A model generated the notes under the pieces. It searched no databases. It was not told where the DNA came from and worked only from the letters and a program-made list of their open reading frames with translations. A stretch of 62,930 bases of DNA, counting the filler, from Chlamydiia bacterium (lineage in GTDB: Bacteria > Chlamydiota > Chlamydiia > Chlamydiales > FEN-1388): the NCBI GenBank assembly GCA_903848235.1. It is 4 parts of 4 records of this genome, joined end to end, with 100 filler letters (N's around TTAATTAATTAA, not from the genome) between each part and the next. Parts side by side here need not be neighbours in the genome. Positions count along the whole stretch, not along the records: positions 54,256 to 62,930 come from CAINFV010000070.1; 3 more parts are not named here. One strand, 5' to 3'. The translations under genes and the position numbers were made by a program. Positions 59,825 to 61,534 of this stretch are shown here, piece by piece (positions within the stretch are counted from its first letter, which is position 1; every line of letters starts with the position of its first letter).

Positions 59825-60895
59825 ATGGCATTCTCACAAATCATCCTGGCCCTGATCTGCTGTGGGTGTTTATCAGCGGCAGAACCCTCTCTTACAGAAG
59901 AAAAGGCGTCTGAGTTCAGTCTGAAGAAGCATACAGAAACTCTCAATGCTCACGACCATACAAAATTTTCCTCTTGGATTCTCAGCGCACACCCTTCCCC
60001 AGCAAAAAAGGCACTGCTGACTTCCACTATCACTTCGACCCATTACCCGTTCACACCAACAATCACGTGGTATAAGGCCAGCCTTTCCACTTCAGCCTTC
60101 GACCAGCTTCTCAACCAAACATTTCTCTCTCCTTCCGTCGTCGTCCAGTCGGCACAAGGCAATTACAATTACACCCCTGACAACGCTTTTTGGGTTGATT
60201 TTGCAAATGCAAGCCACTTTGGCGGCGGGTTTCGCTCCAAAGGCAATGTCCAAGAAGAGCGGATGTTTGACGAATTCCCACAGCTATCAGACCTCGCCTA
60301 CGTGCTGCGCAAAAGCACTACCATTCTCCCCACAACAAAAAATGGAGTAGCAGAGCCTTTCTTAGTCGTCGACGCTCTTCGAAAATTTGATGTCTCACAG
60401 GTGCCCTATGGAAAGGCTCTTGACAGCGCCTCGCCAAAAAAAGTGGCCGCCGCCGTTGTTAAACTGAGCAAACCGCTCAAATCTGCCAACATCATCGGCT
60501 TAGCAGCCAAGGACTATAGCAAGAAGCATAACTCCAGATATTCGACGAGCGACCTTCAATACCATCTGCAAGCAGCTCTCCTAGGAGACTTAGCAGCCCT
60601 TCAGTATAATAACGGCCCTGCAAACCTCATCATACACACAGGAAGATGGGGTGCTGGAGCGTTCAAAAACAGCCTTCCTATGATCACAGCTCTTCAAATT
60701 CTTGCTGCCGAAATGGCCTTCGACGGGAAAACACCTTCATCGCTAATCGTTTTCCACGGAATCGATACTTCTCTGATCATCACGCTCCAACAGGAGATCG
60801 TCAGTAAACTCCTAGCAGGCACAACGCCGAACGAACTGTTGAAAATATTTAAAAACCGCCAAAACGACGATGCCGCATGGCGTCCGCAAAATTGA
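59825..60895 (+). CDS. Exported poly(ADP-ribose) glycohydrolase (PARG) macrodomain protein
   Basis: Signal peptide; VDFAN..GGG-X7-QEE signature and TGRWGAGAF, matching canonical PARG DFAN/GGG/QEE/TGNWGCGAF; GGGAGA RBS. Confidence 0.85.
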   Translation: MAFSQIILALICCGCLSAAEPSLTEEKASEFSLKKHTETLNAHDHTKFSSWILSAHPSPAKKALLTSTITSTHYPFTPTITWYKASLSTSAFDQLLNQTFLSPSVVVQSAQGNYNYTPDNAFWVDFANASHFGGGFRSKGNVQEERMFDEFPQLSDLAYVLRKSTTILPTTKNGVAEPFLVVDALRKFDVSQVPYGKALDSASPKKVAAAVVKLSKPLKSANIIGLAAKDYSKKHNSRYSTSDLQYHLQAALLGDLAALQYNNGPANLIIHTGRWGAGAFKNSLPMITALQILAAEMAFDGKTPSSLIVFHGIDTSLIITLQQEIVSKLLAGTTPNELLKIFKNRQNDDAAWRPQN

Positions 60896-60919
60896 GTTTT
60901 TAAAAAAAAGGAGATATTT

Positions 60920-61534
60920 ATGTTCCACAAAGGTTCTCTGTTTGCGATCTGTGCTTGTGCTGCAGCACTCTTCTCTGCACCATCGTTTGCAAATGACTAT
61001 ATCCTATACGTCCGCCCTCAGAAAAAGCTTGGCAGTGAATTTTCGACATATTGGAAAGCTGTTAAAAAAGACTCCTCCATTAGCCATAAAGCCATTACTG
61101 ACTACCCTCCCCATTGCAGCCTTACAGGATTCTTCCCTGCCAACAAGTCAGAAAAGACCTACATCAAAGCTGTCAATGATGCAATTAAAAGCCTTGGGTC
61201 GGCTCGCACAATCACGATCGATGGACTTGTTCAAGGAAATGTGACGTCACGGCTGGATTATGTCAAACTCTCGTCGTCTTATTTGCTGGCTGTAACGAAG
61301 GCGTTTATGAACAATGCTTCGGTCCCAATGTCGTTTCTAAAAGACCCCAAAACCTTTACCTACCACATCACCCTTCGGGACCACACGTTTCAAAAGAATG
61401 CGGACAAGAAATTAAAAAAGATTCAACGGTTGGAAAAAAAGATCAATCTTAAGGCGAAAGCCTCGTGGTCACTCTTCCTGTATGAAAGAGATGATAACGG
61501 CGACATAACACCTATCAAAGAGTTTCCGCTCTAA
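60920..61534 (+). CDS. Exported 2H phosphoesterase (UBASH3/Sts-like)
   Basis: Signal peptide ending SFA; two HxS/T motifs (PHCSL, YHITL); YILYVRP..FSTYW..PHCSLTGFF pattern; AGGAG RBS. Confidence 0.8.
   Translation: MFHKGSLFAICACAAALFSAPSFANDYILYVRPQKKLGSEFSTYWKAVKKDSSISHKAITDYPPHCSLTGFFPANKSEKTYIKAVNDAIKSLGSARTITIDGLVQGNVTSRLDYVKLSSSYLLAVTKAFMNNASVPMSFLKDPKTFTYHITLRDHTFQKNADKKLKKIQRLEKKINLKAKASWSLFLYERDDNGDITPIKEFPL

Follow-up and report, generated by a model that had tools for sequence, protein, structure and literature searches.

The draft genome of a Chlamydiia bacterium (GenBank assembly GCA_903848235.1, here G000; 2.35 Mb in 284 contigs, 93% complete) encodes, side by side, a protein of the poly(ADP-ribose) glycohydrolase (PARG) family and a 2H phosphoesterase, referred to below as gene 1 and gene 2. 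The DNA analyzed, hereafter the window, is a 62,930-nucleotide stretch of joined contigs, in which positions 28352–54155 are contig C67 and the pair with its flanking genes lies on contig C70, at about 54256–62930. The original prediction, made from the sequence alone, had described two co-oriented genes 24 nt apart, each with a ribosome-binding site. This layout was confirmed, with the gap at 60896–60919 and a GGGAGA or GGAG site ahead of each start codon (Table 1). An in-frame ATG at 59810 offers an alternative start for gene 1 and leaves its hydrophobic N-terminus unchanged. Our scan found no terminator-like site on the + strand between the two genes, and co-transcription is therefore likely, as far as the sequence can tell; counts in the promoter and terminator scan were at or near shuffle expectation. 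Homologues at 39–73% identity were found for both open reading frames (ORFs; n = 18 for gene 1 and n = 23 for gene 2), which makes them conserved genes, so the pattern is not due to chance.

Table 1 Features of the gene pair, with positions in the window
Feature	Position	Strand	Basis
Shine–Dalgarno-like GGGAGA, gene 1	59812..59817	+	7 nt 5′ of ATG at 59825
Gene 1 (P0001), 356-aa canonical-type PARG (PARG_cat_C macrodomain)	59825..60895	+	Pfam PF05028, structure matches
Predicted Sec signal peptide, gene 1, residues 1–19, cleavage between SAA and EP	59825..59881	+	Heuristic and conservation
PARG catalytic region, DFAN (D125–N128) and GGG-X7-QEE (G133–E145)	60197..60259	+	Motif, aligns to human PARG VDFAN...GGG...QEE
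Diphosphate-binding loop T272-GRWGAGA-F280	60638..60664	+	Aligns to human TGNWGCGAF
Shine–Dalgarno GGAG, gene 2	60910..60913	+	6 nt 5′ of ATG at 60920
Gene 2 (P0002), 204-aa 2H phosphoesterase, UBASH3/phn-operon clade	60920..61534	+	Fold, motifs, hhalign
Predicted Sec signal peptide, gene 2, residues 1–24, cleavage between SFA and ND	60920..60991	+	Heuristic and conservation
First 2H motif H65-C66-S67	61112..61120	+	All three residues invariant in 20 homologues
Second 2H motif H149-I150-T151	61364..61372	+	H149 and I150 invariant, T151 nearly so, in 20 homologues

Identity of the two encoded proteins

Gene 1 has the fold of a canonical (eukaryote-type) PARG with the catalytic signature intact. 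As regards fold and family, this assignment is firm. The catalytic segment reads G133-G-G-FRSKGNV-Q143-E-E145, and all of the motifs named in the original prediction (DFAN, GGG-X7-QEE and TGxWGxGAF) are present, the last as TGRWGAGAF. Across 14 gene 1 homologues, D125, F126, A127, G133, G134, Q143, E144 and E145 are invariant, N128 and G135 nearly so, and the loop residues G273, G276, G278 and F280 are invariant as well. GGG-X6-8-QEE is described as the motif that marks eraser macrodomains in the available part of one account (PMC8699189). The Pfam model PARG_cat_C (PF05028) matched gene 1 at 42 bits against a cut-off of 26.3, over residues 108–297, and a precomputed PF05028 match was recorded for 17 of the 19 listed gene 1 family proteins, the query included. 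A profile built from 14 family members retrieved human PARG among solved structures at E 1.7e-6.

Structural comparison agreed with these profiles and bore out the predicted PARG assignment. With the AlphaFold model of gene 1 (predicted local distance difference test score, pLDDT, 86.7; low confidence only in residues 1–29), Foldseek returned Tetrahymena and human PARG first (E about 5e-11, with bacterial-type PARGs at about 1e-6), and ranks 1–42 were all canonical PARGs. The VIA aligner gave Z 22.2 to Tetrahymena PARG (4epp_A; 284 residues aligned, root-mean-square deviation 3.5) and Z 20.1 to Drosophila PARG (8adj_A); ordinary macrodomains reached at most Z 13.2. Nearly the whole mature protein (model residues 29–352) superposes on the Tetrahymena (4epp), human (4b1j) and Drosophila (8adj) enzymes, with the DFAN, GGG-X7-QEE and GxWGxGAF elements aligned. 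Gene 1 differs from these enzymes in being bacterial with a predicted Sec signal peptide, in its length of about 337 mature residues compared with 440–530 in the solved chains, and in its sequence, at 14–19% identity (Foldseek). Pfam found no match to PARG_cat_N (PF20811) in gene 1 at E up to 1, yet model residues 29–100 superpose on the pre-macrodomain region of 4epp. The bacterial-type PARGs (DUF2263/PF10021; Thermomonospora curvata, Deinococcus radiodurans) are also macrodomain glycohydrolases with a GGG...QEE signature, but they match gene 1 less well: the Deinococcus enzyme reached Z 13.6, and PF10021 scored 17.4 bits against a cut-off of 23.5, over residues 110–148 only.

Gene 2 has a 2H fold with both HxS/T motifs, an assignment equally firm at the level of fold and family. 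Its H-x-(S/T)-x motifs read H65-C-S-L and H149-I-T-L. With the gene 2 model (pLDDT 89.9; low confidence only in residues 1–22), Foldseek matched E. coli LigT and the Arabidopsis phosphodiesterase that acts on ADP-ribose 1′′,2′′-cyclic phosphate (Appr>p), the latter at E 2.9e-5, and VIA placed YjcG first. All 20 chains at Z of at least 5 (6.7–13.0) are 2H-fold entries by title; the next row was CNPase at Z 4.4, and unrelated rows stood at Z 3.9 or lower. By sequence, the gene 2 family profile had 0 matches among solved structures. The shared fold covers LigT and YjcG (Z 13.0 for YjcG), the Arabidopsis enzyme (1fsi, Z 10.4) and the viral 2H enzymes mouse hepatitis virus ns2 (Z 8.9), rotavirus VP3 (Z 8.5), poxvirus cyclic GMP–AMP phosphodiesterase (Z 8.1) and phage Acb1 (Z 6.7), but sequence identity between these proteins and gene 2 is 9–17%, and likeness of fold does not fix the substrate.

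The gene 2 family is rare, with 92 representatives at E 0.001 among 1.84 billion proteins. Among the 58 of these 92 that were scanned with Pfam, three have the UBA-2H-SH3-His_Phos_1 architecture of UBASH3/Sts proteins and one carries an FkbM methyltransferase domain. In that search, the chlamydial 2H profile found the UBASH3-type proteins at hmmsearch E values of 9.9e-5, 6.6e-4 and 9.2e-4, hhalign aligned the chlamydial family with UBASH3 proteins at 95.6% (E 1.1e-8, 154 columns), and an Atlas structure search with gene 2 retrieved UBASH3A clusters at TM 0.75–0.77. Because the profile search, hhalign and the Atlas structure rows agree, we regard the resemblance as real. The blocks YILY..P.G.L, PH(C/I)(S/T)L.GFF and W.L.LY.RD are common to gene 2 and the 2H domain of UBASH3/Sts, also called the phosphodiesterase (PDE) domain. 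Gene 2 differs in standing alone, with a signal peptide and without UBA, SH3 and phosphatase domains; the PDE domain of Sts-1 is cytosolic, according to the available part of its description (PMC10218301). The two HxS/T motifs, the 2H fold and the likeness to the animal UBASH3/Sts domain that had been read from gene 2 thus all stand, and we consider the enzyme identities of both genes very probable. Separately, one chlamydial 2H homologue (P0040, locus L019/L074) has a run of His/Asp/Glu-rich repeats (ERHDDHD-like) as an insertion immediately ahead of the final 2H-domain strand.

The closest prokaryotic relatives of gene 2 outside Chlamydiota are 2H proteins of phn operons, which share both HxS/T motifs and align with the chlamydial proteins at 99.2% in hhalign (E 2.6e-19, 173 columns). 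Filamentous cyanobacteria supplied most of the non-chlamydial genome relatives, and some others belonged to Chloroflexi, Desulfobacteraceae and Acidimicrobiia. PhnM was present in 25 of the 31 non-chlamydial genome loci, usually directly upstream of the 2H gene, and in 10 of the 16 non-chlamydial metagenome loci. In Lyngbya sp. PCC 8106 (L080), for instance, the order is PhnF, PhnG, PhnH, two family-less ORFs, a GST-like ORF, PhnK, PhnL, PhnM, the 2H gene (9938–10516), Phn-HD and a HAD hydrolase. The phn-linked proteins differ from gene 2 in lacking a signal peptide and in their operon setting, gene 2 being flanked by unrelated transporters; PhnM, PhnI, PhnJ and Phn-HD had no match in any chlamydial 2H locus.

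This relationship provides a lead to the substrate. PhnP hydrolyses 5-phosphoribosyl 1,2-cyclic phosphate (PRcP), and a 2H protein has been proposed to do so in carbon–phosphorus lyase clusters without phnP, a role that is itself drawn from gene context in the available part of that work (PMC3840354). The Sts-1 PDE domain hydrolyses 2′,3′-cyclic nucleotides to 3′-nucleotides, with YjcG as its closest characterized structure and a physiological substrate given as unknown in the part of the paper at hand (PMC10218301). The phn-linked members in the PhnP slot, together with the Sts-1 activity, therefore suggest that the gene 2 clade works on ribose cyclic phosphates; by analogy, the most likely substrate of gene 2 is a 2′,3′-cyclic nucleotide end or a ribose-1,2-cyclic phosphate such as Appr>p. 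The phn-linked 2H proteins (L080 and 24 further loci among L077–L107) also aligned with UBASH3 itself, at 99.8% in hhalign (E 1.1e-28, 160 columns), a relationship that suggests ribose-1,2-cyclic phosphates as candidate substrates of the Sts PDE domain. In the literature searched here and below, mostly without subscription journals, we found no paper linking UBASH3 with phosphonate metabolism. Mazumder et al. (2002) may have grouped these 2H families already.

Export signals, the chlamydial PARG family and the surrounding genes

Both proteins are probably exported across the inner membrane, to judge from their N-termini. Signal peptides were called by a heuristic that combines hydropathy with small residues at −3/−1, and the signal peptides predicted for both proteins showed Sec-type features, conserved among the homologues of each. 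By this heuristic, an uncharged N-terminal h-region (10-aa Kyte–Doolittle maximum >2.1) followed by small residues is present in all full-length members of the two families. P0017 and P0026, which have no h-region, and P0010, at 1.95, are all shorter than the family norm and were read as truncated. In the gene 1 model, pLDDT falls below 50 at residues 1–3 and 12–29. The 2H family has a conserved predicted cleavage site, xF(G/A) followed by (T/S/N)(D/E)YILYVR, one or two residues before the first strand. In the cyanobacterial relatives, the protein begins with the domain itself and has no signal-peptide extension, and three chlamydial 2H members (G058:C8, G015 and L076) are without the N-terminal extension. 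We also considered whether the Cys-rich signal peptide marks gene 1 as a lipoprotein and rejected this: the cysteines are not conserved, and there is no canonical lipobox.

The same genome has a type II secretion cluster, formed by adjacent genes for a secretin and a GspE-type ATPase (G000:C102:21867–24180), and a second secretin gene on C104. Sec-dependent chlamydial proteins that reach the host cytosol have been documented, in the available part of the report (PMC3107777). Given this cluster and these precedents, release of both proteins to the host is possible.

PARG_cat_C proteins are encoded in 33 of the 400 genomes sampled across the phylum Chlamydiota, with none among the 29 genomes of the small-genome family f35. 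GGG-x-QEE is kept in 28 of 39 PARG ORF entries, three of those 28 being cuts of one gene. Among chlamydial PARGs, an N-terminal signal peptide was found in the close orthologues of gene 1 only. Family f29 has five PARG_cat_C ORFs of 420–490 aa in four genomes, namely L042 (G282), L004 (G050), L043 (G114) and L044 (G283, two ORFs), with transmembrane-like segments 16–30 residues from the N-terminus that are paired in four of the five. Paired N-terminal transmembrane segments are a recognized in silico mark of inclusion-membrane (Inc) proteins. Most of the remaining chlamydial PARGs have long polar N-termini. Such varied, delivery-type N-termini on one catalytic domain are as expected of host-directed proteins, a circumstantial point. 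The genome under study has a second PARG_cat_C protein as well (G000:C169:10948–11136, L012; 47.9 bits), which is at least 772 aa long and open at the start of the locus; its catalytic domain is C-terminal, and the roughly 500 residues ahead of it contain neither a Pfam family nor a signal peptide.

Neither a chlamydial PARG nor this pair was described in the literature that we searched, in keeping with the statement in the original prediction that no such chlamydial system was known. Canonical PARGs are treated as eukaryotic in the available part of the survey by Perina et al. (PMC4245714), and a 2021 review of bacterial ADP-ribosylation makes 0 mentions of chlamydiae (PMC8120803). A broadened PARG profile search for non-chlamydial outgroups returned only chlamydial-type proteins among the matches listed; the Atlas gave leads to bacterial PF05028 clusters, commonest in Myxococcota and Cyanobacteriota, and to eukaryotic clusters. 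A parallel is offered by Legionella, an intracellular bacterium of amoebae that sends the ADP-ribose-binding, hydrolase-like proteins MavL and Lpg0081 into its host, as set out in the available part of PMC8699189. Lpg0081 differs in matching the gene 1 model at only Z 6.2 (VIA), and MavL in its export by the Dot/Icm type IV system (same source), where gene 1 has a predicted Sec signal peptide.

The relatives of the pair are chlamydial, one homologue being named Candidatus Protochlamydia phocaeensis. The flanking genes encode an SDF-family symporter, two Sulf_transp halves, an ABC-2 permease and its ATPase, of which the Sulf_transp halves, the permease and the ATPase lie on the strand opposite to the pair. 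The Sulf_transp halves, at 58584–59768 on the − strand, are adjoining ORFs of 186 and 206 aa that match Sulf_transp (YeeE/YedE) model positions 3–153 and 168–309 of 310, and they could represent one gene that has been split or a transporter made in two pieces. Farther along the − strand, at 56108–57172, a 354-aa ORF with no Pfam family has a hydrophobic stretch near its N-terminus and may be another exported protein. A foreign-DNA island was rejected as an account of the pair, since GC content is even (0.41–0.52) along contig C70. Searches of PADLOC and PHROGs gave 0 matches for the pair, NCBIfam gave no match above cut-off for either gene, and no relative of either family was found on viral contigs with the patterns searched.

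Gene order and explanations of the pair

We favor, with about even confidence, the view that the pair consists of lineage-specific, probably bicistronic, Sec-exported hydrolases of an environmental chlamydia that act on host-derived NAD-related molecules; action of both proteins on host molecules, taken as a claim of its own, we place a shade below even. By the mechanism of solved PARGs, the macrodomain of gene 1 would bind ADP-ribose via its GGG and GRWGAGAF loops, and the glutamates of Q143-E144-E145 would cleave the ribose–ribose O-glycosidic bond. His65 and His149 of gene 2 would open a ribose cyclic phosphodiester, as in its relatives. Both proteins would be translocated by Sec with cleavage of their signal peptides and might then leave the periplasm by type II secretion or in vesicles, as proposed for CPAF and cHtrA, to meet PAR or ADP-ribose chains and cyclic-phosphate nucleotides of the host. 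Tpt1/KptA and Macro-domain genes were not found in the G000 draft (control genomes matched), and the PARP profile had no match there, with the control likewise silent; within the limits of a draft genome, therefore, no internal source of PAR or Appr>p was seen.

Several observations weigh against this interpretation. PAR as the substrate does not follow from membership of the PARG family alone. The Pfam model 2_5_RNA_ligase2 (PF13563) scored gene 2 at 20 bits against a cut-off of 27, with profile positions 10–150 of 152 covered. The most that a Sec signal peptide can prove is location in the periplasm. In a 93%-complete draft of 284 contigs, PARP, Tpt1 and Macro genes are "not found" rather than "absent". 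The remaining observations concern gene order. Among 73 loci, the two families were together only in the window's own L001 and L013; PARG was found within the flanks of 2H genes in 0 of 21 metagenome loci and 0 of 34 genome loci; a broad PARG-like profile had 0 matches in 66 2H loci, even at E 1; and no other chlamydial PARG locus had a 2H neighbor. In G003, G010, G153 and G261, the orthologous PARG genes lie beside different genes (MazG, hemerythrin, Fic and peroxiredoxin), and the neighbors of homologues vary in general (transporters, Fic, MazG and NUDIX). PARG occurs without a 2H gene in G003 (85% complete) and G010, and a 2H gene without a close PARG in G015 (61% complete), G058, G268 and G294. 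As further observations, MazG adjoins PARG in G003, and a NUDIX gene adjoins the 2H gene in L074.

The two-gene module of the original prediction thus survives in part, but as a conserved operon it was rejected. Adjacency was seen in no other locus examined, which is the outcome that had been named as refuting it, with one possible exception: P0003, with 66% identity to gene 1, and P0024, with 69% identity to gene 2, were each found on a single 4577-bp Logan contig, and would be a possible second case of adjacency if that contig is the same one. What stands is the co-occurrence of the two families. In the sample of 400 genomes, close PARG orthologues were found in 4, the 2H family in 6 and both in 3 (Fisher p 7.5e-6, uncorrected for phylogeny), and the genomes with both (G000, G153 and G261) come from three chlamydial families. 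In G261, the two genes are 26 kb apart on a 3.3-Mb contig, separated by genes for an ankyrin-repeat protein, two proteins of about 1500 aa, a Fic protein and housekeeping functions. The adjacency is better seen as recent, local and lineage-specific, and functional coupling of gene 1 and gene 2 is somewhat unlikely. We prefer to view the two proteins as belonging to a single host-directed toolkit and not as the steps of an obligate pathway.

Nutrient salvage is the first alternative. Here both enzymes would stay in the periplasm, where a Sec signal peptide by itself would place them, or in the inclusion lumen, and degrade host nucleotide material (2′,3′-cyclic nucleotides from RNA decay and ADP-ribose oligomers) for import by chlamydial transporters; E. 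coli CpdB, a periplasmic 2′,3′-cyclic phosphodiesterase, is the model. Transporter genes adjoin the pair (SDF symporter, Sulf_transp and ABC-2), several homologues adjoin genes for SSF, MFS, sulfate permease or solute-binding proteins, and phosphorus salvage is the pathway served by the nearest bacterial relatives of gene 2. However, PAR is a polymer of the host nucleus and cytosol, which makes it difficult to see how it would come to be in the periplasm or the inclusion lumen; a conserved transporter partner was not found in the neighborhoods of homologues; and the N-termini of other chlamydial PARG paralogues are Inc-like anchors or long polar stretches in place of periplasmic signals. We consider salvage unlikely.

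Alternatively, the gene order could be accidental, with unrelated roles for the two proteins, one or both of which might bind ligands and not act as enzymes. The uniqueness of the adjacency to this lineage in all data examined, and the varied neighborhoods elsewhere, are what this account would lead one to expect. It is harder to square with catalytic residues that are invariant or nearly so across both families, with the recurrence of both families in three genomes of three chlamydial families among 400, and with the same kind of predicted export signal on both proteins, and we find it quite improbable.

A bolder version of the host-directed view would have the exported pair jointly remove signals of stress or immunity that the amoebal host derives from NAD, with the chlamydial PARG set as an effector family directed against host ADP-ribose signaling. 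PARG would cut 1′′-2′ ribose–ribose bonds, as in poly(ADP-ribose); such bonds also occur in the TIR-made signals di-ADPR, ADPr-ATP and 2′cADPR. The 2H enzyme would open ribose cyclic phosphates, for example Appr>p and 2′,3′-cyclic nucleotide monophosphates, and the effector set would comprise the Sec-exported, the Inc-like anchored and the long-polar-N-terminus PARGs. As a whole, this version is very improbable.

The original prediction had also pointed to a sequential scheme in which the 2H enzyme opens Appr>p and the macrodomain enzyme processes the product. An obligate module of this kind would suit the 24-nt gap between genes that are probably co-transcribed, the presence of both families in three genomes and the Arabidopsis Appr>p phosphodiesterase among the structural matches, and the gene 2 clade sits in the slot of PhnP, whose substrate has the same ribose-1,2-cyclic phosphate group as Appr>p. 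The scheme nevertheless fits poorly because the gene 1 macrodomain is of the PARG type (Z 22.2) and not of the ADP-ribose-1′′-phosphate phosphatase type (Poa1p Z 8.4, Ymx7 Z 7.2). In addition, the adjacency is not conserved, no fusion of PARG and 2H domains was found in the 58 of 92 2H representatives scanned with Pfam, no 2H match was found in 39 PARG-like ORFs, and Tpt1, which makes Appr>p, was not found in G000. We regard it as scarcely probable.

The same low probability applies to self-protection or regulation, in which the enzymes would reverse ADP-ribosylation or clear toxic cyclic nucleotides in the bacterial envelope, for example as an antidote to ADP-ribosylating toxins of its own or of competitors: bacterial macrodomain hydrolases are often antidotes to ADP-ribosyltransferases, according to the available part of PMC8120803, and Fic-domain genes adjoin orthologous PARGs in the genomes of two families (L038:3-884 in G010 and L040:2925-3875 in G261), but no transferase gene adjoins the pair, PARP was not matched in G000 (control silent; other ADP-ribosyltransferase families were not searched for), PADLOC and PHROGs are without a match, and an obligate intracellular bacterium meets few competitors.

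Meaning for chlamydiae and for 2H proteins

PARG-family genes are common in environmental chlamydiae, where they come in three N-terminal architectures, and we found no description of them in the literature. Delivery of the gene 1 PARG to the host would make it a bacterial effector that carries the whole of a eukaryote-type site for erasing PAR, a site that MavL of Legionella only resembles, according to the available part of PMC8699189. Gene 2 ties together three settings, namely an exported chlamydial enzyme, the PhnP slot of phn operons, and the PDE domain of the mammalian immune regulators Sts-1 and Sts-2, for which we found no joint discussion in the literature. Ribose 1,2-cyclic phosphates would offer a common substrate idea for the chlamydial 2H proteins, the phn-operon 2H proteins and the Sts PDE domain.

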